Virus record (IMG/VR): IMGVR_UViG_3300020577_008610
Coordinates: 32,001 to 96,000 of that record
Source: a virus
Taxonomy: Duplodnaviria; Caudoviricetes
Direction: 5' to 3' (one strand)
Length of the DNA stretch: 64,000 nucleotides
This document shows, piece after piece, positions 8,613 through 54,944 of the stretch. Positions within the stretch are counted from its first letter, which is position 1. Each line of letters begins with the position of its first letter. A model generated the notes under the pieces. It was not told the DNA's origin. It saw only the letters and a program-made list of their open reading frames with translations, and did not search any database. Position numbers and translations under genes: made by a program.

Positions 8613-8634
8613 GCTTGAACTCCCTTACTCCTTC

Positions 8635-9333
8635 CTAAGTAGCAGGATTGGGCTTCTTGGGCCGCTTGTTGCGAAAAGTGTCAGTTCGCTCATGGCAATC
8701 AATGCAAAGTGTTCTGCCGTTGTTGATGTCCCAGAGTGCCTCACAGCCAACACTATCTTCCACAGACTTCACATTGCATTCTCGGATAATGTCTGCAGAC
8801 TTTTTGATGTGATCGGCATTGATAGCTTTCGAAGCATTTCCGCACCATACACACTTGAAACCATCTCTCTGAAAAACAGCTAGACGCCACTGAGCGTATT
8901 TTTCTGTTTGTCGGATTGCTAAATTCAACAAAGTTTTGCGTTTTCCTGCTGGTTTCCAGTTTGGATTGTTTGTTCCTTTGTGGTTTCGAGCGCCATTGGC
9001 GAACTGCTGTTTGTGGATTTGGGAAACCTTGGTTGCCATCACAGCAACCCTAGAATCCGACTCCTTGGTCAATCCCTTGATCCAAGTTGGTTGTCCTTTT
9101 GTTGGACCCTCTTTGCCATAGAAATGATGCCTCTCTCCCGATTTTGCACAAGACTTGGAGCAAAACCTGGAGGTTCTTCGGTGAGCAATGGAGGCCACAT
9201 ACGGCTTCTTGCAAGCTTCGCACAATCGTTCCAGTGGTTCTTTCCGGCAAGCAACCGAACAGTAGTTTTTTTCCTTGACAGCGGAAGGAACTCTTTCAAA
9301 TTCCTTCGAGCATCGAGCACATATCACCAACAT
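8635..9333 (-). mobile_element. Free-standing HNH homing endonuclease gene
   Basis: N-terminal Cys-rich repeats, VFQRDGFKCVWC...ADH...NGRTLCIDCH; start ATG 9333. Confidence 0.85.
8636..8642 (-). promoter_or_regulatory. Putative late promoter CTACTTA
   Basis: Recurrent [AC]TANTTA motif, 24 nt upstream of the 8612 start. Confidence 0.55.
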
Positions 9334-9348
9334 GACAACCTCACGTTG

Positions 9349-9355
9349 TAAGTAT
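9349..9355 (-). promoter_or_regulatory. Putative late promoter ATACTTA
   Basis: Motif 16 nt upstream of the HNH start. Confidence 0.55.
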
Positions 9356-9375
9356 GTACTGAATTGTTGCATATG

Positions 9376-10524
9376 CTAGAAGTCCAATCGCACTTTGAAG
9401 GCAATATCTCTCTCATCGTCCTTAAGCACAGGCCGGGAAAGCTTTGCAACAGCCAAGAGATTGTCCAGAGCGTCATACAGGCCAATTCCGGTGATGAAGA
9501 CAAAGCTTCGCTGGGACTCCTCTTGACCCTCATCGATCACCACAATCCTGCTGTCCGTGTCCGTGTAGGTAGGATTGCTGGAATAGTTGAACTCGTCCGC
9601 AGCCGCCCGACAGAAAAACAGGGCACTGTTGATGTTGGTGATGTTCTGAAAGGTCATGGCCGTCTGTGTTGACCCCGAGAACCTTGTTGTAGCAATGTGG
9701 TCCACGATGTTGTCAATCGAGGCAGAAGCCAGGAACTGGTTGAACGAACCCGTGAACGGAACCTGCCCGGAAACGCTCATTCCATCAATGGTCCCTGTCA
9801 AGTAAGTGGTTGCCGTATTTTGAGCAGAGAAAATTTGACCCATATCCAGGACGGCGATTCCTCTGTCAATGAACAAAAGACCAACCTGTTTGCTCACATT
9901 GGCTGAATTCAGAATGGCCGAGACCTGGCCTCCGAAGCTCAGGCTTTTGTTAACGGAAGAGCTGAGGTCGGTATAGATAGCTCCGCTGGTTGCCTGAGAG
10001 GTTAGGAGGGTGCCAGTCTGGAAAAGTTGAACTGCAAAGGTTTCCCTCTTGATTTGATCACGAGAGAATAACCTCTTGAAGCAAATGAACAAAGCCTCGT
10101 TGATGACATTTGTGGTAGAATCCGAAGTGAAGCTGAACTGCTCATTTGCATTCCCAAGAAGAGAGCCCGCCATCTGTCGATAGAGATCAATCTTCTCACG
10201 CATCATTAAGGACTGTGAAGGGAAGGTGTATTTCCCATTTAAGTCAAGAACAGGGGAGGTTCCAGAAACAACAGCTGAGTTGACATGCAACCCAATGGTC
10301 ATGTCAAAAACAGGATTTGCCGTTTGGAGAGAAAAATCCTGATCAAAAACAGTCTGGAAAAGGGAACTGGTAACCCCAGGCCCCAAACCGCCTGTTACAA
10401 AAACTTGATACTTGCGTCTAGTGACAGACCCCGAGATGTCCTCCTGGATGACGTCAACCAACTGGTTGAGGAAAGACCGGGAGGTCTTGATGTCTTCAGC
10501 TCCGAATTCCTTGAAGGTTGCCAC
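9376..10524 (-). CDS. Virion baseplate/tail protein
   Basis: Structural-gene context; C-terminal FITGIGLYDALDNLLAVAKLSRP...KVRLDF module. Confidence 0.72.
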   Translation of the reverse strand: MATFKEFGAEDIKTSRSFLNQLVDVIQEDISGSVTRRKYQVFVTGGLGPGVTSSLFQTVFDQDFSLQTANPVFDMTIGLHVNSAVVSGTSPVLDLNGKYTFPSQSLMMREKIDLYRQMAGSLLGNANEQFSFTSDSTTNVINEALFICFKRLFSRDQIKRETFAVQLFQTGTLLTSQATSGAIYTDLSSSVNKSLSFGGQVSAILNSANVSKQVGLLFIDRGIAVLDMGQIFSAQNTATTYLTGTIDGMSVSGQVPFTGSFNQFLASASIDNIVDHIATTRFSGSTQTAMTFQNITNINSALFFCRAAADEFNYSSNPTYTDTDSRIVVIDEGQEESQRSFVFITGIGLYDALDNLLAVAKLSRPVLKDDERDIAFKVRLDF

Positions 10525-24911: not shown

Positions 24912-25422
24912 TATTCGGTGCCTTCTAGGTGCCACCCCTTGTGGTATAGTCGTTTGCCGTGAAGCACCGAACGAAGATTGCTAGGCTCCAAATGATGAAT
25001 GGCAGCAAACCCAACCAGATTGTCTATTCTGGTGAACTTTTCTCCTGTTGGTGATACTAGCACGAAGCCCTCGTACACTTTCCTTCTATACGTATTCCCA
25101 AGATGAGCTTTTCGAAGTTTGGCTTTGGTTTCAGGAGAGTGATGCCGTCCAAGCATCGGATGGACTTCACCTTTCCGGTCTACTGCTCCAAATTCAGTAG
25201 CAGGAGAGTTATGTTTCCCCTGAAGAGAAGAACTTATCTTCTGCTTGGTTTCCGGAGAATGTTGATGCCCCATTTGTTGTTGACGAATAAGGTTTTTTTG
25301 TGTCGTTCGAATGAGTTCGACCAAACCAGTGACTTGCTTCTCCTGTCATCCCCTTTGACCAAGGTACATGTCCCCTCTGAAATTGACCAACCTTGATGGC
25401 TTCATTCGTCGTTGAATTTCAT
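24911..25422 (-). pseudogene. Frameshifted NUMOD3 homing-endonuclease remnant
   Basis: HSPETKQKIS/HSPETKAKLR NUMOD3 repeats; upstream frame GHVPWSKG..HWFGRTHSNDTK joins via a frameshift in an A7 run (~25293-25299); no nuclease domain. Confidence 0.7.
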
Positions 25423-25427
25423 GAGTG

Positions 25428-25434
25428 TAAGTAT
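25428..25434 (-). promoter_or_regulatory. Putative late promoter ATACTTA
   Basis: Motif 6 nt upstream of ATG 25422. Confidence 0.5.
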
Positions 25435-25454
25435 GAGATGGAGGGTAGGCTTGG

Positions 25455-26270
25455 CTAACCTCTTGCCCATCCGCCAAATGCTATCGAATCTGTTCCGTAT
25501 TGTCCGGCATTCAAGCCGTAGTAACTCCACCCAGCAGCAGCAGATTTTTTGCCATAAGGCAAAAAGCTGTCACTTGTCTGGGCTCCCTTAGCAGCCAACT
25601 CCGCAATGGTGGAGTTAGTGTTTTGGAGTTTTTTGTCAATAGCGTAGGTCAAGGAGTCGTCAAAAGGAGCAAATCTTCTCTCGATGTCAGCTACATAAGA
25701 GTCTCTCCTTACGTTACCGAAATAATCTCCGCCTTCGTCCAAGAAGAATTTGGGATCCTTCGGAGGAGCAAGCTCAATGAATTGCTCGATTTGGTTGGAA
25801 GATCGGTAAATGTAAGAGTCGAAGTTGTTGCCGTCCTCAAGTTCGCCACGTGCTGCGTGGGCGTAAAAAGGCCCTTCATTGCTGTGTTTTCGGAAGGGGA
25901 TGGCAAGGGGCTCAATGACAGCTTCATTCTGTTGAAGCGGACCTTCGTTGAACTGAATGGGAATGGGGTAAGCTGCCCCTTGAGAAATGTAAGCTACTGG
26001 GTTAAACTTAGGGAGGTCCAGGAACTTACTTTCTAGCCCCAAAGGATTTTCCTGAATTGCACCCTGCATTTGTCCATAGGTTACAATGGAGACCGACCCA
26101 TCTGTATTCCCTGACCACATCTTGGGCTGAGTCCCCAGGAATCGGAAGCGGTCATTGATGATTTCTACTCCTTGGCGGTACTGATCCCATGCGGAGGTAT
26201 CGTAGCCGTTACGAGTGGGCCGTGGAGCCCGAACAGGGTAGCGTTGATCATCGAAGGGAGTAAATGGCAC
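25455..26270 (-). CDS. Putative virion protein (271 aa)
   Basis: Operon context; no enzyme motif. Confidence 0.6.
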   Translation of the reverse strand: MPFTPFDDQRYPVRAPRPTRNGYDTSAWDQYRQGVEIINDRFRFLGTQPKMWSGNTDGSVSIVTYGQMQGAIQENPLGLESKFLDLPKFNPVAYISQGAAYPIPIQFNEGPLQQNEAVIEPLAIPFRKHSNEGPFYAHAARGELEDGNNFDSYIYRSSNQIEQFIELAPPKDPKFFLDEGGDYFGNVRRDSYVADIERRFAPFDDSLTYAIDKKLQNTNSTIAELAAKGAQTSDSFLPYGKKSAAAGWSYYGLNAGQYGTDSIAFGGWARG

Positions 26271-43837: not shown

Positions 43838-46800
43838 TTACGGCTTCGCAGGAGCCTCAGAAAAGCCACCGAAAGCGAGAGCGGAGGAATGGCCCTTGCC
43901 CACCCCGAACACGAATACCCCAGGCTGCTCAGGGATCATTCTCCAGGGGTCAATCACCACAGACCCAGCAGGAAACTTATAATCCCGGAATACAGCGTGG
44001 TGGGTGCCAATAAAGAAACACTTGGCAGGCCCATTAGCATACGGATTCACCGTCTTGTCCTCGGCCTTGTCCACCCAAGGATCATACATCTCAGCCTCGA
44101 TGCCCCTCTCGGCCAGGATGTTCTTCAGGAGGATCGCAGGAGAGCCAACCTCAAGGTTGGTCTGCTCCTTGAATGCCTTCCCGAGAATAACCACAGGAAG
44201 AGTTCTGTACTCCTTGACTGTGAAGTCTTCTGCGGAGTAAATGCCAACCTTTCGGTACTTCTCAACCAGATTGGCCAGGAAGTCCGTCTGCTTTTCTCTT
44301 GCCATCATGATGGCCTCATGGAAGTCAAAGGTCATCCCTAGCTTCCTGGAGAGCCAAGAGAGGGCGATGTTGTCCCGAGGGTGGCAGTTGTTTGATATAC
44401 CTGATGTAGTCAGATAGTTGTGAGTTCCTTCAACATTAAGGTTGTACACAGTACCCTTGTAGTCTTCCAGTTCTACCTTGACAACTTGGTGGTAAGATAC
44501 ACCATCAATTACCGGGATTTCTCGCTGGATAAACTGTGCAATCGCTGGTTTATGGTTTTGTTCACCAAGCAAGGTGCAAAGCTTTTGAACATATTGGTCA
44601 TTTTCAACTCTGACCTTCCATTGAGGTTTTCGATTGCACCCATCATTGCTGTTTTTCTTTTCAACAGTAATTGTTGGCACAATGCCAAACTTCCTGAGAA
44701 TGAAGTAAAGGTTAGAAGCCAAGACCTCAGAAGTGGTTGTGTAGCTCAAACCCTTGCCATTCTTCATGTTGCATCCATCCCCTGCCCACATGCTTTGTAC
44801 CAATGGAGTCAACACTTCTGGTTTGGCAAAAAGCAGCCATGGCGGGATTGTCTTCTTTGAAGAACCTCTCCCAAAGTCGTTCAAGAGCTTGCGTTTCAGG
44901 TCAGCAGAACTAATCCGAATATCCAAGCCATTTCGCTTGTTGTGCTTCTTTGCTGAAACGCGCTTGCTAGGATACAAACGCTTCAATGATTTAGTGAGAT
45001 CGGTATGCAATTCAGTTTCATTGGAATGGAAACTGAAAGCAACACGAGGCTCATTAGCGATAGAACCTTCTGCAAGATAGTAACCAGCTACCTTCAAGTA
45101 ATCCTCTGTGGCATGCTTGGGCATTGCAAAGTCTTGGTTGTGTGCCTCAAATGGGAAAAGAATGTGATGCCTGTTCGGTTCCAGTTCCCAGCCCTTGACT
45201 TCTTTTACTGTTGTCACCTTAGTTTTATCTTCCAGTTCGGCCACCAAGAACGTGTGGTCCAAGGTAAACTTCATGGCAGGCAAACCTTTTACATGCACAT
45301 TCACAAGTTGTGAGTGATAAGGTCGCCTATACGTTTCAAGCACCTTGTGAAACTGCCCATCCGAAGACAACACCATGTCACCCTTCTGGATATCTTTGGT
45401 CTGTCTCACTCCTAACTCCGTGAAAACATTACAGTTTTCAAGGGTGCATCCCCCACCGTCTCCCATGCCTGCATTCAGGTACTTCGTAGAGATGAGACGT
45501 TCCTTCCCCAGCTTCAGAGCCGAAGTCACCTCATCCACATCTGCTCCGGTGTGGTGACAGATTTCCATGAGGTTGTTGACAAAGGCAATCTTGGTGGAGA
45601 TGAAGGTGTTACCCTGCCATGAGCATTTGCCATTTCTTCGCGTCAAAAACACATGATTCTTAGGCAGGACGGCACAATAGATCATGCCCTCGTATTCTGG
45701 CACTTCCTCATACTTCAATCCAACCTTGGATGAACGCTGAAATAGGGATGTTCTGCCTGTGAGCTCGTAGATAAGGTTGCAAGGCTTGTTTGAAAGCTCA
45801 CTCTCGTAGGCCCGATATGAGGGGAAGTGGCCTGCCTTGATAATCAGCTCGCCAATGTCCGCTGCCATCTGCTCTGACGAGGTGGCGTAATAACGATCAA
45901 ACTCCCCGGTGGGTTCGCCATTGAATCTAGTTCTTGCTTGCTTACTGCCATCAGCTTGGTTGTAAACATCCAAGAACAGCCTGATCTCCGGACGACCAAG
46001 CTTCTTGAGCCATGATGGCACGTACTTATCAAATGACTTACCAAACTGGCACAGGTATTCCCCGAGTTCGGCATGGTAGAAAGTGACACCTGACTCTTGC
46101 TGGCAGATTCCATTGCTGCTTCCAAGAGCAGCTTGCAGCGCGGCGACGGTCTGAACGATGGAATTGTACTTTTCCAAATTTTTGGAACGGTTCTGAGAAA
46201 TGATAATTTGGTAGGAGTTCTCAGAAACCTTGGTTGTGCATCCTTCTGCCAAATACCAAGCCATGAACTCAGTCATAAGCTCTATCGGAACTTCTCCAAA
46301 CCCCAGGTTAACGGTTTCTGGGGACTTTAGGTCCCAGTTTGTGTGCCTGAGAAAAGCAAATGATTTCCTCTTGATAACTTCATTTGCTTTCTCCAGCTTC
46401 CACTCGTAAGAGTAGCTCTTGCCATTGGCTGGCTTAGAGCTGAGTGTACCGATAAACATGTTGTGTCCTGGAGTGACAAACACATCATCCTTTCGACTTT
46501 GGAATCGAATCATAGGCCCCTGGTGGTAACGGCCAACGATTTTGTCTGGCTTTACCCATTCGGGCACGAGGGTGTCTGGGTTCAGACTGAGTATTTCGTC
46601 CTTCTCGGCAACATTCGGAAACAGCTTCCACCCACCCGAAGTCAAAACTTCTGTGTCTTCCGAGTAGCAGTTATAAGCAACCTTCACAAGTTCAGCACTC
46701 TTGATGGAGCATCGATAGAACGGAGCATTGTGGATGGTCTTGTAGAAGGCTTCAGCGAGGTCAGCCGTCTTCTCGTCACTCATTCCAAAGAGGACAAACT

Positions 46801-47308
46801 CCGGGTGAGTAAAGTCGTACCTTGTGGTGCCCATAGCAATGAAGAAAGGGTTGTAGCAAAGCTTGAAATGCTTACCCAAGTGAGGAATCACCTTGGAATC
46901 CATGGTTCCTGGGAGCACCGTGGAAATGACCACCACGGGCTTGTCCTTGCCGTTCTTCTCAATGGCTTCATTGAGCTGCTTGCAAGCTTCAATCAGGTAA
47001 GTGTAATCAAAATCCACACGATCTTCTGGGATTCGAGTCACGCCCTCGTATCGTGGGTTGTGTGGCGTCTGAACGGCCACAAAGATCAGGTCCGCAAAGT
47101 CCACCATCTCCTGAACGGAAACCACCCGAATCTTGGTGTTCTGCAATAGCTCAGGCGTCCCTTCCTCTCGGTAGGGTATTTGCTTTGTCCTGATGTACTC
47201 AGCAACAGCAGGGTTTGGGTCATAACCCACAACCTCGTGTCCAGCCGCTTCAGAAGCCAGGGCACATGGTAGCCCCAATTTTCCGAGCCCACAGTATCCT
47301 ACACGCAT
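43838..47308 (-). CDS. ugd: UDP-glucose/GDP-mannose dehydrogenase family protein with two inteins
   Basis: GLGKLG, AVQTP, ISTVLPGT, YNPFF, ELVKVAYN|T, GGG|CHPRD, GKAFK; exteins total ~448 aa; start ATG 47308. Confidence 0.9.
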   Translation of the reverse strand: MRVGYCGLGKLGLPCALASEAAGHEVVGYDPNPAVAEYIRTKQIPYREEGTPELLQNTKIRVVSVQEMVDFADLIFVAVQTPHNPRYEGVTRIPEDRVDFDYTYLIEACKQLNEAIEKNGKDKPVVVISTVLPGTMDSKVIPHLGKHFKLCYNPFFIAMGTTRYDFTHPEFVLFGMSDEKTADLAEAFYKTIHNAPFYRCSIKSAELVKVAYNCYSEDTEVLTSGGWKLFPNVAEKDEILSLNPDTLVPEWVKPDKIVGRYHQGPMIRFQSRKDDVFVTPGHNMFIGTLSSKPANGKSYSYEWKLEKANEVIKRKSFAFLRHTNWDLKSPETVNLGFGEVPIELMTEFMAWYLAEGCTTKVSENSYQIIISQNRSKNLEKYNSIVQTVAALQAALGSSNGICQQESGVTFYHAELGEYLCQFGKSFDKYVPSWLKKLGRPEIRLFLDVYNQADGSKQARTRFNGEPTGEFDRYYATSSEQMAADIGELIIKAGHFPSYRAYESELSNKPCNLIYELTGRTSLFQRSSKVGLKYEEVPEYEGMIYCAVLPKNHVFLTRRNGKCSWQGNTFISTKIAFVNNLMEICHHTGADVDEVTSALKLGKERLISTKYLNAGMGDGGGCTLENCNVFTELGVRQTKDIQKGDMVLSSDGQFHKVLETYRRPYHSQLVNVHVKGLPAMKFTLDHTFLVAELEDKTKVTTVKEVKGWELEPNRHHILFPFEAHNQDFAMPKHATEDYLKVAGYYLAEGSIANEPRVAFSFHSNETELHTDLTKSLKRLYPSKRVSAKKHNKRNGLDIRISSADLKRKLLNDFGRGSSKKTIPPWLLFAKPEVLTPLVQSMWAGDGCNMKNGKGLSYTTTSEVLASNLYFILRKFGIVPTITVEKKNSNDGCNRKPQWKVRVENDQYVQKLCTLLGEQNHKPAIAQFIQREIPVIDGVSYHQVVKVELEDYKGTVYNLNVEGTHNYLTTSGISNNCHPRDNIALSWLSRKLGMTFDFHEAIMMAREKQTDFLANLVEKYRKVGIYSAEDFTVKEYRTLPVVILGKAFKEQTNLEVGSPAILLKNILAERGIEAEMYDPWVDKAEDKTVNPYANGPAKCFFIGTHHAVFRDYKFPAGSVVIDPWRMIPEQPGVFVFGVGKGHSSALAFGGFSEAPAKP
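44387..45448 (-). mobile_element. Intein 2 (354 aa, LAGLIDADG-type)
   Basis: CTLENCNVFT..., FTLDH, GYYLAEG and MWAGDG, VYNLNVEGTHNY...SNN followed by Cys. Confidence 0.9.
45608..46669 (-). mobile_element. Intein 1 (354 aa, LAGLIDADG-type)
   Basis: CYSEDTEVLT..., block B VTPGH, AWYLAEG and YNQADG, ends WQGN followed by Thr. Confidence 0.9.
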
Positions 47309-47309
47309 T

Positions 47310-48092
47310 TTAGCCTTCTTTCCACTTCCACTTGAAACCACCCGCACTAGGACGGCCCCCATTGCAACACCTAGAAATTGACTGATACGCAATTCCCACG
47401 GCAGCTTGTGCTTCTTTCAAGCTGTCAAATTCTGCAACCAGAATACCTGTTACTCGATCCAATTGTACAACAGCTTTTTCATGTTGTTGGATGACAGCGG
47501 CCATCTTGTAACGAGTCTCAACAGACCACTTGTGACCATAAGCAGGATGATTTGAACCTTTTTTCCCAAAATTGGGATGCTTTTCACCAGAGTTCAACTC
47601 ACTCAGTTTCTTCTTGGTAGCTTCAGATAGCACTTTCCCCTTATGGGCTTCGCTGATTTTCTGCCGTACATTCTCCGACAGGTGCTTCCCAAAGTTGACA
47701 TGCTGGTCCCCTTTGCCAAACCATGTCCTGCTCATTTTGGCCATAGCTTCAGGTGAGTGCTTTTGTCCTCGAAAAGTTTGCTCAACACTGCACATGATGT
47801 TGTAACAGTACTCTTTTCCAGCATGTTCATCCAAGAGTTTCTGTTCAGCAGCATCTAGTTCAATGGCAGGCAGGAGTGTCACAATGCTCATTTCAAAGGC
47901 ATCTGAACCGTGTTTGTTGAAAGCATGCTGAAGACGTGGATTGTCATGAGTGCCTTTGGTTAGGTGTTCACAGTGATCTCGAAAGCGCCTACGAAGGTTG
48001 TCAGACTGGCCATAGTAGCACTTGCCATCAAGAACATTCCGTATGCAGTATAGACCACACAACCGTTTCCCTTTTGGAGCTTCAAACTTCAT
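47310..48092 (-). mobile_element. Free-standing GIY-YIG homing endonuclease gene
   Basis: GLYCIRN...YYGQS, NUMOD3 repeats, NUMOD1. Confidence 0.87.
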
Positions 48093-48161
48093 ATAGCCAA
48101 GTATGAGCCAAGCTTACCCAATTACACATATCCACTTCATGAGTATGAACACAGGGGAGGT

Positions 48162-48770
48162 TTAGAGGATCAAAAGGCAACTCACTCCTGGGGTGTCGTA
48201 CACGGTAAAAAGATTGAGCCGAAGAAACGTTTTGTATTCGAATTCCTTGAAGAACTCGATCCACTGTTCCTTGGTTTTGCAGTTGATGTGAGTGGGGTCT
48301 TGACGAGATACTTCCAGAGCAAAGGTCTTGCCACCATCCGTTGAGGACGGAATTCGGACCAACAGAACCCTGGGATTCATCTTGGTTAGTACCTTGGCAA
48401 TCTCTTGGTCCGTCATGTGCTCGAAAACATCCAGAGCAATCAAGAGGTCAGGCCGGCTGAAAACTATATCATCAATCGACTTGTGAACAAGAAGGCCATT
48501 CTTTTGGGCTATCTCTCTGGCCCAGTCAGAGATTTCCACGCCGATTGTATTCTTCAGACCAACCTCTCGGAGACCTTCAATTAGGAAACCAACAGCGCAC
48601 CCGAAGTCAATGATCAAGCTATCACGATCAACCAGGCTGATAGTTCGAAAAAGGCCAGCCAGCTCATAGGCTATCTTCTTGTAGCGGTCGGCTCTCTCCA
48701 GGTAGTCGGCATAGTTGGAAGATTGGTAATACTCTGCTGTATAGATGTTTGGGTCAACTGGTTCCGTCAT
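48162..48770 (-). CDS. Class I SAM-dependent methyltransferase
   Basis: IIDFGCAVGF, GVEIS, DVFEH, DPTH. Confidence 0.88.
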   Translation of the reverse strand: MTEPVDPNIYTAEYYQSSNYADYLERADRYKKIAYELAGLFRTISLVDRDSLIIDFGCAVGFLIEGLREVGLKNTIGVEISDWAREIAQKNGLLVHKSIDDIVFSRPDLLIALDVFEHMTDQEIAKVLTKMNPRVLLVRIPSSTDGGKTFALEVSRQDPTHINCKTKEQWIEFFKEFEYKTFLRLNLFTVYDTPGVSCLLIL

Positions 48771-49126
48771 GGCTTGCCCTCTAGCACACTAACTTGACCA
48801 AAAAACTCCGATTTGGCCATCTTGTCCCCATATCGGCTCATGATCCCTTTTCGGGAACTGAACTCCTTTGAGACAGTCTTCAGGCCAGCCTTTCGAAGCC
48901 GTTGCTCCAGGGCTACAGACTCCACACTGGCATAGATCGAACCGGAGTGATGGTAGTGCCGATACCCCACTGAGCAGGTTCCTGGCTGGTTGCAGGATGA
49001 TTGATAATAGGCTGACGTGAGCAACAAGTGGTGCTGGTTGTACGACGAGCCAGAGTGAACGGTCAGAGCACCAGACAGGTTCGAATGGTTCTGGCCGTAT
49101 GAAAGGAAGTAAACTGAGCATGTCAT
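48767..49126 (-). CDS. Small protein, LRKAGLK motif + gp23-like C-terminal fragment
   Basis: ATGA coupling to the MTase; C-terminus FSSRKGIMSRYGDKMAKSEFFGQVSV. Confidence 0.6.
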   Translation of the reverse strand: MTCSVYFLSYGQNHSNLSGALTVHSGSSYNQHHLLLTSAYYQSSCNQPGTCSVGYRHYHHSGSIYASVESVALEQRLRKAGLKTVSKEFSSRKGIMSRYGDKMAKSEFFGQVSVLEGKP

Positions 49127-49319
49127 GACGCTTTATTGACTCCAAGTCTCTCAGGAATTCAACGTCAATGTCTTCTGAGATGCTCTGTGCCAATTCTTCA
49201 GTTAGCCTACTCTCCGGAGACGTGACCTTCAATCCGGCCTTACGTAGTCGTTGGTAGAGATGCTTTGACGTTTTCCAGGCTTCTTGAGCCTGTTTCCAAT
49301 GCGTTGGTGTCCAAGTCAT
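48789..49319 (-). CDS. Small protein, LRKAGLK motif + gp23-like helix fragment (3' part may be read-through)
   Basis: ATGA coupling at 49319; PESRLTEELAQSISEDIDVEFLRDL; distal part overlaps the next gene. Confidence 0.55.
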   Translation of the reverse strand: MTWTPTHWKQAQEAWKTSKHLYQRLRKAGLKVTSPESRLTEELAQSISEDIDVEFLRDLESIKRHDMLSLLPFIRPEPFEPVWCSDRSLWLVVQPAPLVAHVSLLSIILQPARNLLSGVSALPSLRFDLCQCGVCSPGATASKGWPEDCLKGVQFPKRDHEPIWGQDGQIGVFWSS

Positions 49320-49966
49320 GGCAACAATCGCCAACCCTTTGTTTGAGAGATTTTGCCTCGAATCAAAGCTCCCAACCCTTGAGGCAAAAGTCCGTGCGTC
49401 TTGGAAAAAGCATTAAGGTTGGTGATTGGTCCGAAAACTTCTCCGGTAGGGGATAAAAGTTTCACATCAAATGTCTTGGCTTGAGCTTTGCTGATGTTCA
49501 ACTTCCACTCGTCCGTGAACGGAGTACGCTCCTTGCCTTTCCTGGTCTCTCCAATCTTTCGTTTGTGGTCTTCGGTGAATTTCTTACCCTTCTTCACCTC
49601 AGACCACATTCGAAGTTGTTCCGGAGTAAGCTTGGCTCCCTTGCGGTTAGGTGGCTTGCTGGCTTCAGCCTTGATATTGTAACACGTCTTGCAGCCATCC
49701 CAGAACAAGTCAACCCACTCCTGTTCAATCCGATCAAGATCGGGTGCGGCACATGGTTGCATCATGAACATCACAAATGCTTCCGAACCGTACTTATTGA
49801 AGGCTCGCTGCAAGTGAATGTTGTCGTGTTTCCCTCTCTGGAGAAGCGACAAATGCTCATTGAATCGACGCTTCAACCCATTTGCTTGACCGATGTAGAA
49901 ATGGCCGTTCGACATGTTCTCAATCACGTAAACACCAATCAAGGCTTCATATTCAAGGAGTTTCAT
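49316..49966 (-). mobile_element. Free-standing GIY-YIG homing endonuclease gene
   Basis: GVYVIEN...FYIGQA, CYN, NUMOD3. Confidence 0.87.
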
Positions 49967-51036
49967 GCGAAATTCTTGTCAGGCATTTCCGTGGTAACAT
50001 AATGCAAAATCTCATTGGAATTTTTGTAATAACAATGCCAACACTGGCCTTGGATGTCAATGTCATAAGGATTGCCTCCCGCCTTGAAATTGGCATTCAT
50101 AGAATGCCAGGCTTCTTTGATCTTGTCCGAGTCGCATAGCTTCCAAGTGTCGTGATAGTTCCGGTGCTTTAGAACATGGGAGGTGCACATGTACACACCG
50201 TTCCACACCCAGTAGGGTCTCACCATTCCAACCCAACAGCCGCCTTGGTAGGCATGGAAGGTCTCTCCAATCTCCTTGATGAAGAACTTGGAGTTGGTGT
50301 CAACAGCCTTCACGATGTCACCCCAGTCCTTCTTGATGGTGATGGAGTTCTCGGTGAGGCAGTCAGAGGCGATTCGAACGAACTTGATCTCCGGGTTCAA
50401 TTCCACCAGTTTTGCGATCTTCTGGATGGACTCCACAGTGGTGCCTTCGTAGATGATGTAACTGAATCCCATCTTGGAGACGGGAAATCCCGTGAAGTCG
50501 TAATCCTCAGGGTTCTTACCTTCGTCCAGCTTGATGAGAGAAATTCGAATCCAAGAGAGCTTTGCAGCATTCTCTGGCTTGATGTGCCTGGAAAGCTTCT
50601 CGGAGTTGGTGATAACCCCAATCTCGTAGCCCAAAGAGTGTGCCAACTCAATGATGTGGTTGGCATTTTTGTCCCCATCTTTATAGAGCAGAGGGTTGCC
50701 ACCTCCAGTGATCTCCAAAGACTTGGCTCCCAGTTCTCGGAACTCTCGAAGACCCTTCTCGATGAGAGCAAAAGGGATCTTCTTGTCCACCGACCTCCAG
50801 GATACCGAGCAGAATGGGCAGTTGGAATCGCAAGCTTCTGTGGGAGCAAGCTGGATGGTGATTGGCTTGAAGGTTTTGTCAGCCTGGATGGAATGCAACA
50901 CGTCAGCATGTTGAAGGAGTTTTCCTCCCCAGGTAGAATACGCTTGCGTCTGCTGCTCGTAACTCAGGTTCTCCTTCACAGGAGCCCCAACAGGCTGCTG
51001 CCCTGGCTGAATCACGTTTAACTTTGTTTTACCCAT
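49963..51036 (-). CDS. Radical SAM enzyme with SPASM/twitch-like C-terminus
   Basis: CDSNCPFC, ITGGGNP, ITN; C-terminal CWVG..YMC..CWHC. Confidence 0.88.
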   Translation of the reverse strand: MGKTKLNVIQPGQQPVGAPVKENLSYEQQTQAYSTWGGKLLQHADVLHSIQADKTFKPITIQLAPTEACDSNCPFCSVSWRSVDKKIPFALIEKGLREFRELGAKSLEITGGGNPLLYKDGDKNANHIIELAHSLGYEIGVITNSEKLSRHIKPENAAKLSWIRISLIKLDEGKNPEDYDFTGFPVSKMGFSYIIYEGTTVESIQKIAKLVELNPEIKFVRIASDCLTENSITIKKDWGDIVKAVDTNSKFFIKEIGETFHAYQGGCWVGMVRPYWVWNGVYMCTSHVLKHRNYHDTWKLCDSDKIKEAWHSMNANFKAGGNPYDIDIQGQCWHCYYKNSNEILHYVTTEMPDKNFA

Positions 51037-51421
51037 GTTGTTTCACCTCACGAATCTGCTGTTCCTCATCGAAGACGGTGGACCCACCCATCAAAAGTCC
51101 AAAGTGGTTTTCGTACCCGGCATTAGAGAAAACTTCATCCCCAGAAGCTTTACTCTCCAGTTCTCGAAACACAGCATCCGAAGACCCAAGAGACGGGTTG
51201 ATAAAAACCTGAATATTCATCCCCTTTCGGATGTACCGCCGCAGGGCATAGAACTCCGAGGAGCTTTTGTGGTCATCGTTATCCACCCACAACAGAACCT
51301 CTACTGGATCAAACTTCTGACCCGTCTTGGCTCTCCAGGCTTCATAACCAACAACGCTGTCCAGAAATTTAAACAGGGTAGCAGGATCTTTTGGGAAATA
51401 CAAGCAAATGGTGATAGACAT
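51029..51421 (-). CDS. Truncated GT2-like protein
   Basis: VEVLLWVDNDD and ASGDEV resemble LEIVFYMDKDD and ATGEI of the adjacent GT. Confidence 0.5.
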   Translation of the reverse strand: MSITICLYFPKDPATLFKFLDSVVGYEAWRAKTGQKFDPVEVLLWVDNDDHKSSSEFYALRRYIRKGMNIQVFINPSLGSSDAVFRELESKASGDEVFSNAGYENHFGLLMGGSTVFDEEQQIREVKQHG

Positions 51422-51423
51422 AG

Positions 51424-52134
51424 TTATCCGATCTTGGTGTAAGTTCGAATGAACTCCAGGAGTTTCCGAGCATCTTCCTGACGCTTAGGGAACATGTCAT
51501 TATACATCTGGGTCACATTGTCCCGATGGCCACGAGCCACAGTATCAGAGTAGGTCTGATCTCTTGGCTGCTTTCCGACAGCCCAGTGCATGTGCTCTGT
51601 ATAGATACGCGGCTCATAAACTCTCCGACCAATCATCGTGCTTACATCAGTGAGCCAAGTGTCATTGTAGTCACAGGAAAAGTACGGAGGTACGAAGTAG
51701 CCAACGGTATTCACCCAGTTCCGGTGAAGGAAACCGTGGGTACCCAGCTTTTCATTTTGGATGCCGTCCATCCCGTGAACAAATACGATTTTGTCCGGCT
51801 GGGCATTGATGTGCTGCCTTACCAGAGTGTCCCACCCCTGGGAGCGGAAAATAATGTCATCGCCGCAATGCAGGTAGATTTCACCTGTGGCAATCTTCTG
51901 GCATTCATTCCACATCTGGGAAAGGACAATTCTTTCTCCGCAGATGCCAAGGTGCTGTGGAGAGTCCATTCGCTCGAACTGCTCCAAGGAGTGAATGTCA
52001 TCCTTGTCCATGTAGAAGACAATTTCCAGATTTTCCTTGTCGTCGGCTGTGTTCCAAGCAGACTCCCAGAGACGCTGCATTGCGTGTGGTCTTCCCCTGG
52101 TGGGTGTGAGAAGGCTGATCTTTGTATTGCTCAT
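51424..52134 (-). CDS. Glycosyltransferase, GT2-like
   Basis: ISLLTPTRGR, CGDD, YNDTW. Confidence 0.82.
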   Translation of the reverse strand: MSNTKISLLTPTRGRPHAMQRLWESAWNTADDKENLEIVFYMDKDDIHSLEQFERMDSPQHLGICGERIVLSQMWNECQKIATGEIYLHCGDDIIFRSQGWDTLVRQHINAQPDKIVFVHGMDGIQNEKLGTHGFLHRNWVNTVGYFVPPYFSCDYNDTWLTDVSTMIGRRVYEPRIYTEHMHWAVGKQPRDQTYSDTVARGHRDNVTQMYNDMFPKRQEDARKLLEFIRTYTKIG

Positions 52135-52490
52135 AGTCGAATAGACCTCATTTGCCCATTCTCATGGATTCCCATGAAATTGGAATGCTCCCGGACCCAA
52201 GACTCTCCAGAAGCGTCCTCGTAGGTGACCAGGAACCTTGTTGGATCTTCACAGTCACGAGATACACGAACAACAGTATACACGGTGCCCTTGAAATGCC
52301 TCCACTTGGTTCCAGGAACAGGATCGAGGGGTTTGGGATCCAGGTTCTTGTTGTTTGATACGTTTCTGCCTCTGAGAACATCTCGGAGTTCTTGTACCTG
52401 TTTGGCCATGACTAGATACGAAGTCTTCATCCAGGACTCAATTCCATAGCCTTCAAAAGACTTCACCAATTCTTCAAGGTCAACATCCAT
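52131..52490 (-). CDS. DUF1653-like protein
   Basis: WRHFKGTVYTV...VTYE...WVR...F. Confidence 0.75.
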   Translation of the reverse strand: MDVDLEELVKSFEGYGIESWMKTSYLVMAKQVQELRDVLRGRNVSNNKNLDPKPLDPVPGTKWRHFKGTVYTVVRVSRDCEDPTRFLVTYEDASGESWVREHSNFMGIHENGQMRSIRL

Positions 52491-52526
52491 TGTTTGCTAT
52501 TCTCCATTCCTTGTGGGACATTTCTC

Positions 52527-53297
52527 CTATTGAGATTCGTCATTTACTCCCGTCCATCTTCTGTAAAGGTAGAGTTTTTCAGCCAAAACAGTGGTGTTTC
52601 TGAGAGCAAGTGTCACTCTTAGGTTAAAGTCAGAGTCCTCCGAGTTGGTGATCCGGAGACCCATTCCTGGAGGGTTGAACCGGAACCCAACGTTCCAGAG
52701 AGCCTTGAGGAACATCGCAGAAGTTCCAGCTGTTTCAAACTCTGCCGTGAAGAAATGGTTAATGCCCTCGGTCTGGAATCCGTACTGAACCATCTGGGAA
52801 ATGGTATCAGCTTCAATACCCTTGAGATCTCCTTCCACGTATTCATTCTTTCGTGCCTGCACCTCTTCCTCGGAGTGGCAGTGGTAGAAGCCACACAGGT
52901 TGTGAACGCTCTCTGTGGCCCTCATGGCCTGAAATTGCCTCTCGATTCGCTGAGGCAATGCAATGTCATCAGCATCCTGACAGGTAATGACGAGGCCATT
53001 GCATTGCTCAATTGCGGCATTCAAGCAAAACCACTTCCCCTTGTTGGAAGGAAGGTTGATGTAGCGAACCCTAGGGTCCTTGCGACACATTCTTTGGGCT
53101 ACCTCATCTGTCTCATCCGTTGAGCCATCATTCACGATGACGATCTCCAGGTTTCGGTAGGTCTGTCCGATAATGCTCTCCACGCTCTCTTGGAGAAACT
53201 TCCCATGATTAAAACAAGGGATGACTACAGTAATCGTAGGGAGTTCAGTAATCGATTCGTCCTGGCTGGGCTGCTCTGTTGCTGCTTCTGTTGACAT
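52527..53297 (-). CDS. Glycosyltransferase, GT2
   Basis: VVIPCFN, VNDGSTD, QDADD, SED. Confidence 0.92.
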   Translation of the reverse strand: MSTEAATEQPSQDESITELPTITVVIPCFNHGKFLQESVESIIGQTYRNLEIVIVNDGSTDETDEVAQRMCRKDPRVRYINLPSNKGKWFCLNAAIEQCNGLVITCQDADDIALPQRIERQFQAMRATESVHNLCGFYHCHSEEEVQARKNEYVEGDLKGIEADTISQMVQYGFQTEGINHFFTAEFETAGTSAMFLKALWNVGFRFNPPGMGLRITNSEDSDFNLRVTLALRNTTVLAEKLYLYRRWTGVNDESQ

Positions 53298-53581
53298 GTT
53301 TTGAGTCCTGCTTTTCTCAGTTGTTTGCTCAAAGAGAAAGATAGTCTCCCATGAACGGGATGAATATATCTTTCTGAACCTGAAGTGGGTTCTACCACAT
53401 TTTATGCTCTTCTAGGCTTGCAGCTAGTTTTCAATCCAGTGGACTTCGAAATAGCTTTGAGGCCAGCTCTCCAAAGCTGCCTGGCAAAGTTCTACTTTGC
53501 CATGGCTTTCTCTGGAAGGTACTTTGGCGACTCACTGCCTGGTGGATGAGTGGTAATGAACCATTTGAAACTTTTACCCAT
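53225..53581 (-). other. Two tandem in-frame mini-ORFs with LW/LR(R/K)AGLK motifs (first interrupted by TAG)
   Basis: MGKSFKW...AMAK*NFARQLWRAGLKAIS...RRA* then VVEP...LSKQLRKAGLKTCQ...*; below the ORF-track cutoff. Confidence 0.5.
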
Positions 53582-54602
53582 GCGTTTTTACCCAATCTTG
53601 GATGAGAGCAGGGTGGGACCTGTGGATAGTAACGTGAGGAGTTGCCGTTCCCGACCATCTGAAGTGAAAGATGTGCCCTCCGGTCTTATTCTCCAGGTCC
53701 ACGGCCTTTTGACGGATCATCTCATCGGTTACCTTGGCCCAAGGGACTTCAAAGAATGGATTCCAGTCAGGGTCCTTGTTCTTAGCACTGTCCGGACCGT
53801 ACATGGCTTTCCAAAAGGTTGTCCAGAAGGAACGGTACTGCTTGATCTTTCGCTCCACGGAAAACCAGGAATAATGATGAACTCCTGGGAGCTCTGTGAC
53901 AGCTTGATTGAACCACTTTTCGTAAGTAGCAATCAACTTGGAAGGATTTTTCATCACTATGTGTCGAAGACTGTCAATCTCTGGGGGCATGAAGCCCATC
54001 ACAGGGAGAATTTGGCCTGTACTCTTGGAGATGTAGTCGCAGGTATCTGTTCCCGGCGAGGCATAGTCCAGGCCGTTAAATTTCCTCCTGAGCTGGACAG
54101 GGATGCCGTGAGTGATGTCTGGAAGGTTTCGAGAAAGACGAGCTTTCCAGGGGTTGATATCAGCTCGAACCTTCCCTTTGCTTCCCCAGTATTCAATAAC
54201 AGGCAAGGCCACAATGGAGCATTGCCGAAGGTAATTCAGCTTCTCAATCAAAGGCCGAATCTTCGGAGCATCCAACTCGTGGACAATCTCATCCGTATCG
54301 AACTGCCATAGAAACTGCCCCTTGCAGTGAGACCTAGCCAGGGCCTTCGTCTGCCCATCGAAGATACCGTGATTAGGGGCCTTCCAGTCGAACTGATCGG
54401 TATGGAGGGCCCTAACCCTAGGGTCCTCCTTGGAGAGAGCTTGTAGAGCCTCCAGGGTGCCTTCGTTGGGGTCTCCAGAATCCAGAACAACTACCTCGTC
54501 AGCAAATTGAAGCATGCTCTTGATGGACTCCAGGAAAGGGTAGTCCATAGTCAGGGCATTGCGAGTGGTCGTGTAAGCAGAAATGGTAACTGCGGGAGGC
54601 AT
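53574..54602 (-). CDS. Glycosyltransferase, GT2-like
   Basis: YPFLESIKSML, DEVVVLDSG, QFDTDE. Confidence 0.8.
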   Translation of the reverse strand: MPPAVTISAYTTTRNALTMDYPFLESIKSMLQFADEVVVLDSGDPNEGTLEALQALSKEDPRVRALHTDQFDWKAPNHGIFDGQTKALARSHCKGQFLWQFDTDEIVHELDAPKIRPLIEKLNYLRQCSIVALPVIEYWGSKGKVRADINPWKARLSRNLPDITHGIPVQLRRKFNGLDYASPGTDTCDYISKSTGQILPVMGFMPPEIDSLRHIVMKNPSKLIATYEKWFNQAVTELPGVHHYSWFSVERKIKQYRSFWTTFWKAMYGPDSAKNKDPDWNPFFEVPWAKVTDEMIRQKAVDLENKTGGHIFHFRWSGTATPHVTIHRSHPALIQDWVKTHG

Positions 54603-54605
54603 GGG

Positions 54606-54944
54606 TTACTCTTCCTCGACAACTTCATCACAACTTTGGAAGTTGGGGTGAGGAAGCCGGCACTCTGAACACACCTTCACAGCTCTCATTTTTCCCTTTA
54701 CGGTTTTGAGAGTGGAAGTCCCAGCTGCTTTCGGTTGAAATTCTGGAAGTTCTGCCGCAAGATCTCCTTGGTAACGTTCGATAAGAAATACGGCAGTCAA
54801 AACAGGTCGAAGAGTCTTTGAAAGCTCTTTTGTCAGCTTCCCATCGGACTTTTTTTGCTTCCGAAGGTCATCCAAGTTGTCGGCGGCATCTCGAAGAGTT
54901 GCGATGACTCCTTTCAATATCACTTCCAGTTCTTCTCGTTTCAT
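54606..54944 (-). CDS. hypothetical protein with C-terminal CxxCxxxH..C
   Basis: 112 aa, GGAGA RBS. Confidence 0.65.
   Translation of the reverse strand: MKREELEVILKGVIATLRDAADNLDDLRKQKKSDGKLTKELSKTLRPVLTAVFLIERYQGDLAAELPEFQPKAAGTSTLKTVKGKMRAVKVCSECRLPHPNFQSCDEVVEEE

Follow-up and report, generated by a model that had tools for sequence, protein, structure and literature searches.

Comparison with described systems

Phage T4 carries in its genome a second gene that arose by duplication of the capsid gene gp23, the vertex paralogue gp24 (PF07068), and the mini-genes described here are likewise gp23-related genes kept in the same genome as gp23. However, gp24 is a full-length HK97-fold capsid protein, whereas the mini-genes keep only 25-85-residue pieces of gp23 plus an added helix. 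Each piece forms its own mini-ORF, placed 75 kb away from gp23 in a sugar-modification island that includes a nucleotide-sugar dehydrogenase. To our knowledge, no conserved small proteins built from pieces of the capsid protein of the same virus have been described, and a literature search for such capsid-fragment genes returned no description.

A short peptide common to otherwise different small phage proteins is found in T4 as the capsid-targeting sequence (CTS) of the internal proteins and Alt, and capsid assembly is a plausible context for the motif peptides of this locus too. The T4 CTS, however, is N-terminal and ends at the L/I-x-E site of the prohead protease, and the motif copies have neither feature, being internal or C-terminal, basic and without Glu. 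The coat-binding C-terminal tail of the scaffold in this phage clade, ...RNRLM[EQ]LAGI[RK]RK, is near-invariant in 43 scaffold homologues. The tail ERNRLMELAGIRRK gave no match to the motif HMM (E above 100) and has only AG-[IL]-[RK] in common with it, and the motif was on this ground rejected as a copy of the scaffold C-terminal tail.

The IF2_N domain (PF04760) and helix-extended loop-helix modules of the SAP/HeH type resemble one class of mini-protein (type A, see below), in which a helix is followed by an AG-[LI]-K-V-x-S loop and a second helix. Type A matches IF2_N over positions 10-53 (E 5e-5) at 23.3 bits and the protein P0002 scores 23.4 bits, both under the gathering score of 25.3 bits, and a copied gp23 spine helix accounts better for the second helix of type A.

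Prochlorosins are a family of peptides with a leader and a variable core. As in that family, several small ORFs here have one conserved segment, divergent remainders and adjoining tailoring enzymes, yet no lanthipeptide or SPASM-type maturase was recognized at this locus, and the variable parts are capsid fragments rather than Cys/Ser/Thr-rich cores. Rickettsia palindromic elements and the PeSL cassettes of T4-type phages are repeated in-frame elements acting as recombination linkers. The motif copies are comparable in that they lie at module boundaries and that deletions and fusions run between them. They differ in being conserved as peptide and not as DNA or RNA structure, and the promoter and stem-loop conserved as nucleotides in PeSL cassettes were not found in them.

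Occurrence and conservation of the motif

The window, the whole stretch of DNA analyzed here, is 64,000 nucleotides long and belongs to the 189 kb record of a giant T4-like (jumbo) phage from wastewater. The original prediction had described four copies of a motif in short junction ORFs, conserved at the protein and not the DNA level. A six-frame search with L[RW][KR]AG[LI]K finds these four copies, with the first base of the Leu codon at 48898, 49247, 53320 and 53476. All are on the minus strand, span less than 4.6 kb and have the form L[RW][KR]AGLK; further copies were found neither in the rest of the window nor in the full 189,179-bp record. From six-frame residue frequencies 0.0029 matches would be expected by chance, and 300 shuffles gave 0. 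Searched against the genome, an HMM built from the copies of related phages only picks out precisely the four (E 6e-7 to 1e-3); its next match has an E of 0.27.

In the seven core codons of 23 copies from seven phages, entropy amounts to 0.61 bits at the first codon position, 0.35 at the second and 1.58 at the third, where the first two values are partly constrained by the selection of copies through the protein pattern itself. Substitutions within the motif are conservative as protein (A to V or T, G to C, L to I, K to R). Judging from these alignments, the motif is conserved as protein with near-random third codon positions, which bears out the predicted level of conservation, and the codons quoted with that prediction are correct. 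In AlphaFold models the motif is located at the C-terminal end of a helix.

Genome context

The first two motif copies are flanked by genes for a radical SAM enzyme and a methyltransferase.

48162-48770, minus strand: Methyltransf_23 gene, the conserved downstream neighbor of the mini-genes
48767-49126, minus strand: 119-aa ORF (frame B), the type B form of the window, its stop overlapping the methyltransferase start
48789-49319, minus strand: 176-aa ORF (frame A) with ATG at 49319, in ATGA overlap with the GIY-YIG stop
49316-49966, minus strand: inserted gene for a GIY-YIG homing endonuclease, separating the radical SAM gene from type A
49963-51036, minus strand: radical SAM gene, the conserved upstream neighbor of the mini-genes

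The order radical SAM, small gene, Methyltransf_23 is kept in the related phages L008, L056, L058 and L060, and in the conserved position the mini-genes follow the order radical SAM, A, B, methyltransferase. Across eight phages the radical SAM gene is 81-94% identical to the L008 copy. The GIY-YIG gene at the type A site is missing in L007-L010 and L015. Mini-genes are present in relatives without the endonuclease, and the idea that they are its cargo was rejected. Mobile elements of the island comprise two GIY-YIG genes and inteins inside the dehydrogenase. With megablast the region has no match among isolated phages, none of the ORFs has a match in PHROGs, and in a protein atlas only generic small 'capsid-domain' clusters were matched.

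Type B, the 119-aa ORF

48878-48898, minus strand: motif copy 1, LRKAGLK (HMM E 3e-6)
48779-48868, minus strand: gp23-like tail, residues 87-116 of the 119-aa ORF (BLASTP E 5e-9, 47% identity)

The tail corresponds to residues 604-633 of the gp23 of this phage, the final 30 residues, which form its last strands. In relatives type B is roughly 100 aa, is always situated between the radical SAM and methyltransferase genes, and consists of gp23 ~550-603, the motif insertion and gp23 606-633. By comparison with this layout, the 119-aa ORF is a shortened hybrid in which two ancestral units are fused in register inside the motif. The arrangement of the window is gap-free in the independent DNA assemblies X4 and X18, and a 119-aa protein from another assembly (P0001) is 94% identical to the ORF. 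The type B sequences of the window phage and L056 share ~45% identity. The frame remains open at 40-50% identity, against 90% for gp23 itself. In L015 it is a pseudogene with a stop within the GY.YAPYVPL block, and in the L018 lineage it is truncated after the motif.

Neither the 119-aa ORF nor P0001 has any Pfam match, while the intact orthologues P0003 and P0004 pass the PF07068 (Gp23) gathering score of 24.4 bits with 25.3 and 28.6 bits at profile positions 288-354 of 376. With tblastn the 119-aa ORF finds only weak matches, to Flavobacterium phage capsid genes. In an exhaustive phmmer search of 1.8 billion proteins, P0003 aligned to full-length gp23s in two stretches with the insertion missing, and about a dozen proteins of 88-117 aa matched it end to end, motif included, at 33-53% identity. 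A separate search for longer proteins with the type B insertion found none; by itself this is weak evidence, but the exhaustive phmmer search agrees. Since the insertion is common to the small proteins and missing from every full-length gp23 found, they appear to constitute a distinct family. An AF2 model of type B has a helix at residues 50-60, ending just before the AG of the motif, and is otherwise unstructured (pLDDT 60).

Type A

49227-49247, minus strand: motif copy 2, LRKAGLK (HMM E 6e-5)
49134-49214, minus strand: type A residues 36-62, homologous to the gp23 spine helix (gp23 417-443; hhalign, BLASTP)

The conserved type A mini-protein comprises only the first ~68 residues of frame A (49116-49319), and its orthologues in L015, L056, L058 and L060 are ORFs of 48-61 aa. 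Identity between the window phage and L056 is 34%. The family alignment A5 matches the phage's own gp23 with E 1.1e-4 and a probability of 56% (hhalign), and the L056 member matches gp23 with E 2e-4 (BLASTP). The AF2 model consists of a helix, an AGLKVTSPES loop and a second helix (residues 38-67); AF2 confidence is low for the mini-proteins (pLDDT 60 and 72), and Foldseek found nothing in the PDB that matches the type A model.

The remaining 105 codons of frame A run out of frame across the 119-aa ORF. This is untidy for a real gene and counts against the explanation that we favor below. Whether the window is frameshifted relative to the 182-aa P0002 was considered and rejected, as the alignment shows that the derived state is that of L011/P0002, where frames A and B are fused by a 4-nt deletion.

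The second junction

53225-53398, minus strand: 57-aa ORF with GTG start containing motif copy 3 (53300-53320), overlapping the GT2 start (ATG 53297)
53405-53491, minus strand: 29-codon stretch containing motif copy 4 (53456-53476), from TAG 53492-53494 to TAA 53402-53404
53492-53581, minus strand: 29-aa head of the broken mini-gene of this junction, its start overlapping the stop of the upstream GT2-like gene

Relatives show frame changes just upstream of copy 3, and the ORF that contains this copy is, on such comparisons, probably a remnant. Copy 4 lies behind an in-frame TAG as originally reported, within a stop-to-stop stretch that has no start codon. The codon aligned to the TAG is TGG (Trp) in L011 and L008, which identifies the TAG as a G-to-A nonsense mutation. 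The same gene has 18-nt and 66-nt deletions upstream and a ~240-nt deletion after the motif. As aligned, copy 4 is a decayed pseudogene piece and not a functional member of the family.

Mini-genes of related phages and their relation to gp23

Related phages carry up to six mini-genes at the same two junctions, each a gp23 piece joined to the motif; the copy number is four in the window, where two copies are intact and two decayed, and six in both L008 and L060, and L056 has five tightly packed, intact mini-ORFs. The gp23 segments used are 376-428, 417-443 and 547-633, and relatives additionally use 80-109 and 23-66. In the HK97 fold the copied segments would be inner-face P-domain elements. 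The T4 gp23 capsid structures PDB 5vf3 and 6uzc were matched. Only fragments are present (type B ~550-633, type A 417-443, type C 376-428), and no mini-gene has a complete HK97-type capsid fold. Used as a tblastn query on the relatives' junctions, the phage's own gp23 finds the C-terminal type with E 3e-20 and the 376-428 type with E 5e-16. Type C, in which gp23 376-428 precedes the motif, is deleted in the window. Type C was lost twice, and no single mini-gene is thus indispensable; this, and the damage to type B in L015 and in the L018 lineage, counts against the explanation that we favor below.

These comparisons support the original prediction of a short junction-ORF family with a common helical module, whose copy number and partners vary among relatives. 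The claim that the flanks are unrelated does not hold: copies 1 and 2 are flanked by gp23 homologues, and all four sites have orthologues in relatives. Likewise, of a modular helix fused to variable cargo the helical module stands, while the cargo, rather than being unrelated, is drawn from particular segments of the gp23 of the same phage.

The gp23s of the window phage and L056 share 90% identity overall and do not differ at all in the copied segments, whereas their mini-proteins diverge by 55-66%; the idea that these evolve in concert with gp23 was rejected on this basis. DNA alignments reveal deletions between motif copies that bring modules together anew. The deletions keep the register in three lineages and lose it at the second junction of the window. 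This makes the motif a recombination joint as well.

Selection and transcription

Estimated over 53-68 codons, dN/dS lies at 0.22-0.29 in the tail of copy 1 and at 0.21-0.33 in copy 2; neighboring enzymes have 0.03-0.23. By these ratios copies 1 and 2 are under purifying selection. A diversifying system had been proposed, which fits the fast divergence and the shuffling of modules but not positive selection. Two metatranscriptome contigs (X19 and X20) cover the whole stretch in a ~93% identical strain. They are indistinguishable from DNA carry-over and were for that reason not counted as evidence of expression.

Proposed function and alternatives

The reading that we consider probable is that the junction ORFs are lineage-specific, translated mini-genes, each combining a gp23 piece with a basic amphipathic helix that would act as a handle and a recombination linker. 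The family resides in the sugar-modification island of this jumbo phage, and the common helix would be ~12-20 aa, basic and amphipathic, with the terminus [LI]-[RK]-[KR]-[AV]-G-[LIV]-[KR]. Copy 2 represents type A, copy 1 the shortened hybrid of type B, and copies 3 and 4 what is left of the second junction after its decay through the nonsense mutation and deletions. The helix may be a common protein-protein (docking) handle on capsid-mimicking peptides whose gp23-like parts would not fold alone. Such peptides could mimic or complement gp23 segments towards some gp23-binding partner, which might be an assembly factor, a host sensor of the capsid protein or one of the modification enzymes encoded nearby. 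Because the handle is repeated, it would also serve as an in-frame recombination linker that shuffles modules.

A more specific version, which we regard as unlikely, is a modular capsid-mimic system of peptides copying a gp23 strand, the spine helix and the C-terminal strands, each with the basic handle. The peptides might then intercept a capsid-recognizing factor (a host immune sensor, a chaperonin or the modification enzymes of the island) or, alternatively, reassemble into a P-domain-like unit, and the repeated handle would permit in-frame swaps of modules.

Less likely again is evolutionary debris, that is, an old partial gp23 duplicate broken up by cassette and homing-endonuclease insertions, with the motifs being recent duplicates of one segment and the ORFs functionless. 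Decay is demonstrable in copies 3 and 4, L015 has a broken type B, close relatives differ by many indels and frame changes, the island is rich in mobile elements (GIY-YIG genes and dehydrogenase inteins), and the isolated peptides have no predicted fold. However, frames of 48-100 codons stay open at 33-50% identity and saturated dS in L056, L058, L060 and ~12 database clusters, with a dN/dS of 0.2-0.3. The motif is retained despite its randomized third codon positions, and the insertion is common to all the small proteins and missing from every full-length gp23 found.

We give the same low weight to a RiPP-like pathway, in which the adjacent radical SAM enzyme, methyltransferase and glycosyltransferases would act on the mini-proteins as precursor or acceptor peptides and recognize them by the motif. 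The invariant order of radical SAM, small gene and methyltransferase with overlapping stops and starts fits such a pathway, as does one short motif common to several small peptides, frequently followed by Ser or Thr. The radical SAM enzyme is extremely conserved and weakly matches peptide-maturase models, among others; yet its best NCBIfam matches are viperin-like and MoaA-like, all far under cut-off, and it matches no RRE or SPASM model there. No conserved Cys/Ser/Thr core position was found in the peptides. The methyltransferase resembles a sugar (pseudaminic-acid-associated) methylase, and together with the nucleotide-sugar dehydrogenase this allows a sugar pathway to explain the enzymes of the island without a peptide.

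A DNA or RNA element only resembling a peptide (a recombination site, a regulatory hairpin, or a promoter/stem-loop cassette as proposed for shuffling in T4-type phages) is very improbable. The copies do lie at gene junctions, deletion end points fall inside them, and the GT2 start codon has an AGGA from copy 3 ten bases ahead of it. Against this, codon positions 1 and 2 are fixed while the third is near-random, substitutions are those expected of a protein, and every copy is in frame with the ORFs on one strand. The copies match nothing in Rfam, no site resembling a promoter or terminator occurs at them, and TATAAATA was not found in the window.

Read-through of the TAG at 53492-53494, for which a suppressor tRNA had been envisaged and which would join the 29-aa head to copy 4, is scarcely credible: the reading frame does run on past the TAG, and the start of the head is well placed over the stop of the upstream gene, but the TGG of L011 and L008 and the accompanying 18- and 66-nt deletions mark a nonsense mutation, a second stop (TAA) follows 29 codons further on, TAG terminates 34 of the 112 ORFs of at least 200 aa, and none of the 25 tRNAs has a CTA anticodon.

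For annotation, the in-frame TAG at this locus is a case of ordinary gene decay, and such junction ORFs of T4-like jumbo phages should not be dismissed as noise. If the translated mini-genes that we favor are functional, they would point to a new means by which phages control how the capsid is assembled or modified, or counter the sensing of capsid protein by the host, and would show how a short repeated peptide-coding linker can drive the in-frame shuffling of modules.

Motif copies and their level of conservation

A six-frame scan for L[RW][KR]AG[LI]K returned four sites, at 48898, 49247, 53320 and 53476 and all on the minus strand, with no further copy in the window or in the whole genome. 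By chance 0.003 copies would be expected and 300 shuffles gave 0, which bears out the four occurrences of the original prediction. Copies 1 and 2 lie at junction 1, the gap between the radical SAM and Methyltransf_23 genes, and copies 3 and 4 at junction 2, between the GT2-like and GT2 genes. A motif HMM built from other phages' copies only recovered exactly the same four sites (E 6e-7 to 1e-3), the next-best match having E 0.27.

The copies differ by synonymous codons, as predicted. Across 23 copies from seven phages, a set in which selection by protein pattern itself constrains codon positions 1 and 2, entropy in the seven core codons was 1.58 bits at third positions compared with 0.61 at first and 0.35 at second positions. 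The motif copies matched no Rfam family, and neither a promoter-like or terminator-like site nor TATAAATA was present at them. Together these results place conservation of the motif at the protein and not the DNA level, as had been proposed.

Capsid protein pieces in the flanks

The 189 kb IMG/VR virus record, of which the window is bases 32001-96000, encodes a head module of the T4 type at genome 6-15 kb, beyond the window, comprising portal, prohead protease, 700-aa scaffold and 637-aa major capsid protein (gp23). A homologue of the 119-aa ORF of copy 1, P0001, is 94% identical to it, and the ORF's 100-aa relatives P0003 and P0004 exceed the Pfam Gp23 cut-off at profile positions 288-354 of 376. 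P0003 aligns with the phage's own gp23 at residues 547-603 and 606-633, with approximately 20 additional residues containing the motif between the two stretches; the window's ORF retains only the post-motif part, matching gp23 604-633 (E 5e-9). The helix after copy 2 matches residues 417-443 of gp23, the spine helix (hhalign E 1.1e-4), and the corresponding member in the related locus L056 matches it by BLASTP (E 2e-4). The same stretch gave a sub-threshold IF2_N match (23.3 bits; cut-off 25.3). These matches refute the earlier view that the flanks are unrelated and indicate that they are pieces of gp23. Three types of mini-gene were distinguished: A (motif plus the 417-443 helix), B (gp23 ~550-603, motif, 606-633) and C (gp23 376-428 plus motif).

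In AF2 models the type B family (pLDDT 60) has a single element, a helix at 50-60 (PQVALQKQLRK) that stops just before AG, and type A (pLDDT 72) has helix 5-27, an AGLKVTSPES loop and helix 38-67. The models thus predict that a basic amphipathic helix ends in the motif, which caps it at the C-terminus. No independent fold was predicted by AF2 for the gp23-derived strands.

The scaffold-like protein was considered as a source of the motif.
Genome 8071-10173 (locus L061), minus strand: scaffold-like protein, 700 aa, upstream of gp23, ending ...YEGAvLVEAERNRLMELAGIRRK
Across 43 homologue clusters its final ~20 residues hardly vary, in contrast to the diverging remainder, and this end is likely a coat-binding tail. 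The motif as a copy of that tail (...RNRLMELAGIRRK) was rejected: only AG-[IL]-[RK] is in common and the HMM gives no support.

Mini-genes in related phages

Loci of relatives were contigs with the homologues P0002 and P0003, plus loci retrieved via the neighbouring methyltransferase. They keep the gene order GT2-like (341 aa), junction 2, GT2 (255), DUF1653, 236 aa, 130 aa, radical SAM, junction 1, Methyltransf_23, and both junctions hold motif copies beside gp23 fragments. L008 has six copies, including type C (tblastn E 5e-16), type A, a degenerate unit and an intact type B; L060 has six, along with fragments of gp23 23-66 and 581-594. In L056 five intact mini-ORFs are tightly packed (48, 48, 54, 70 and 99 aa), four of them with the variant [KR][KR]VG[LV][KR]. 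The L017-L019 lineage has (N)PFR[WF]TCL[KR] after gp23 80-109, 376-401, 411-439 and 557-603, and L018 also one KRLRRAGIRVKVK; the first of these fragments is presumably equivalent to the T4 Gol region.
L018 2690-3260 and 7230-7900; L017 and L019 ~820-1030 and ~7815: (N)PFR[WF]TCL[KR] with gp23 fragments
This variant is conserved as peptide and not as DNA in the sister lineage, and on likeness it may be related to the window motif.

P0003 was compared with 1.84 billion representatives by exhaustive phmmer search, giving 257 matches. Full-length gp23s (450-670 aa) matched in two stretches without the insertion, while about a dozen proteins of 88-117 aa (33-53% identity) matched end to end and kept [LI][RK]xAG[LI][KR]. 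All three small proteins looked up are encoded directly downstream of the radical SAM gene, with the methyltransferase gene following. Type A is an intact 48-61-aa ORF in L015, L056, L058 and L060. Type B is broken in L015 and truncated in L018, so members appear dispensable one by one.

Selection and rates of divergence in mini-genes, neighbouring enzymes and gp23
Copy 1 tail, dN/dS (copy values based on 53-68 codons): window vs L011 0.22, vs L008 0.29
Copy 2, dN/dS: window vs L011 0.21, vs L008 0.30, vs L015 0.33
Neighbouring enzymes, dN/dS: window vs L011 or L008 0.06-0.23
gp23, window vs L056: 90% identity, copied segments identical
Radical SAM, L008 (94% identical to the window's) vs L056: 83% identity
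Methyltransferase, L008 (90% identical to the window's) vs L056: 59% identity
Type B, P0003 (L008) vs P0006 (L056): about 45% identity
Type A, window vs L056: 34% identity

By these identities the mini-proteins diverge far faster than the surrounding genes. Their contrast with gp23 indicates old duplicates that have been kept open and not homogenised by gp23.

State of the window copies

At junction 1, DNA alignment shows that 281 nt of L008 are absent from the window and L011; the missing stretch runs precisely from the LRK/AGLK boundary of one motif copy to that of another. Copy 1 is thus an in-register hybrid in which the degenerate unit is joined to the true type B unit, the latter without its gp23 550-603 part. 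The ORFs of copy 2 (frame A) and copy 1 (frame B) are unfused in the window and L008, and the 182-aa P0002 form results from an extra 4-nt deletion in L011 that fuses them. Frame A in the window runs stop-free for 105 codons past the conserved type A part and overlaps the 119-aa ORF.

At junction 2 a type C mini-gene of ~240 nt, once between two motif copies, is deleted in the window, out of register; L011 lost it separately, with other end points, in register inside the motif. The TAG-bearing gene also has 18-nt and 66-nt deletions. Read-through of the TAG at 53492-53494, raised in the original prediction, was rejected: L011 and L008 have TGG (Trp) at the aligned position, TAG ends 34 of the 112 long ORFs, and none of the genome's tRNAs has a CTA anticodon. 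Copy 4 lacks a start codon and is followed by TAA, and copy 3 sits in a 57-aa GTG ORF that overlaps the GT2 start, with frame changes just upstream in relatives; both therefore appear to be remnants. The KAG codons of copy 3 (AAA GCA GGA) place AGGA ten bases 5' of the GT2 start codon at 53297, and this remnant may partly survive as the GT2 ribosome-binding site. All 6.6 kb are spanned without gaps by independent sludge assemblies, which carry 26-34 substitutions; the junction states are therefore not assembly errors.

Genome setting and neighbouring genes

Twenty runs from ten studies hold the stretch at least in part, and 91-98% of its sampled words are present in riverine, wastewater, sludge and soil metagenomes. 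DNA nearly identical to window 48100-54700 is found in metagenomes from wastewater, activated sludge, rivers and soil, and two wastewater metatranscriptome runs contain a strain of ~93% identity whose junction 2 is longer and has lost less. ARAGORN reported 25 tRNAs in the genome and a tmRNA; of the stop codons that end long ORFs, TGA is the least used (22/112).
Genome 142057-142130, beyond the window, plus strand: tRNA with anticodon TCA (ARAGORN label SeC, 74 nt), which would read TGA
Genome 25395-25745, minus strand: tmRNA, tag GADALQMAA (ARAGORN)
Window 43838-47392, minus strand: nucleotide-sugar dehydrogenase, 1184 aa
Window 47310-48092 and 49316-49966, minus strand: two GIY-YIG homing endonuclease genes flanking the methyltransferase and mini-gene block
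Window 49963-51036, minus strand: radical SAM, 81-94% identical to the L008 copy in eight phages

Intein or intein-containing models match the dehydrogenase at residues ~242-313, ~450-526 and ~740-1000, which points to at least one intein and probably two. The same gene has Intein_splicing and LAGLIDADG_3 matches in L013 and is intein-free (452 aa) in L007-L010. Both GIY-YIG sites are endonuclease-free in L007-L010, with a 132-143-aa ORF at the first; one of the two window genes has four NUMOD3 repeats and a NUMOD1-like tail. The radical SAM protein has a Cys-rich C-terminal part (C..C..C..CxxC) and sub-threshold matches only, the best to viperin-like and MoaA models. In the same eight phages the methyltransferase is 59-95% identical to that of L008.

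Interpretation

Segmental amplification driven by homing endonucleases has reportedly been described in one paper. T4-like phages carry hypervariable islands rich in glycosyltransferases (PMC7029224). In the literature searched we found no description of conserved capsid-fragment mini-genes. Closest among known systems are gp24, a full-length paralogue; shared targeting tags like the T4 CTS; helix-loop-helix modules resembling IF2_N/SAP; peptide families with a leader and a core; and repeats that act as in-frame linkers. None of the defining features tested for these was clearly present.

Sequence comparison indicates a family of mini-genes composed of gp23 pieces and one common helix. The repeated motif serves as a joint for recombination by which modules are fused or lost; three of the four events observed were in register. 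The position of the mini-genes beside the radical SAM and methyltransferase genes is conserved, and a serious rival explanation is that the mini-proteins are a substrate or acceptor of these enzymes. Pure debris is less likely: the dN/dS values indicate purifying selection on intact members. In our preferred reading, the shared helix would be a common interaction handle and the gp23-like parts would mimic or complement gp23 segments towards a gp23-recognising partner.
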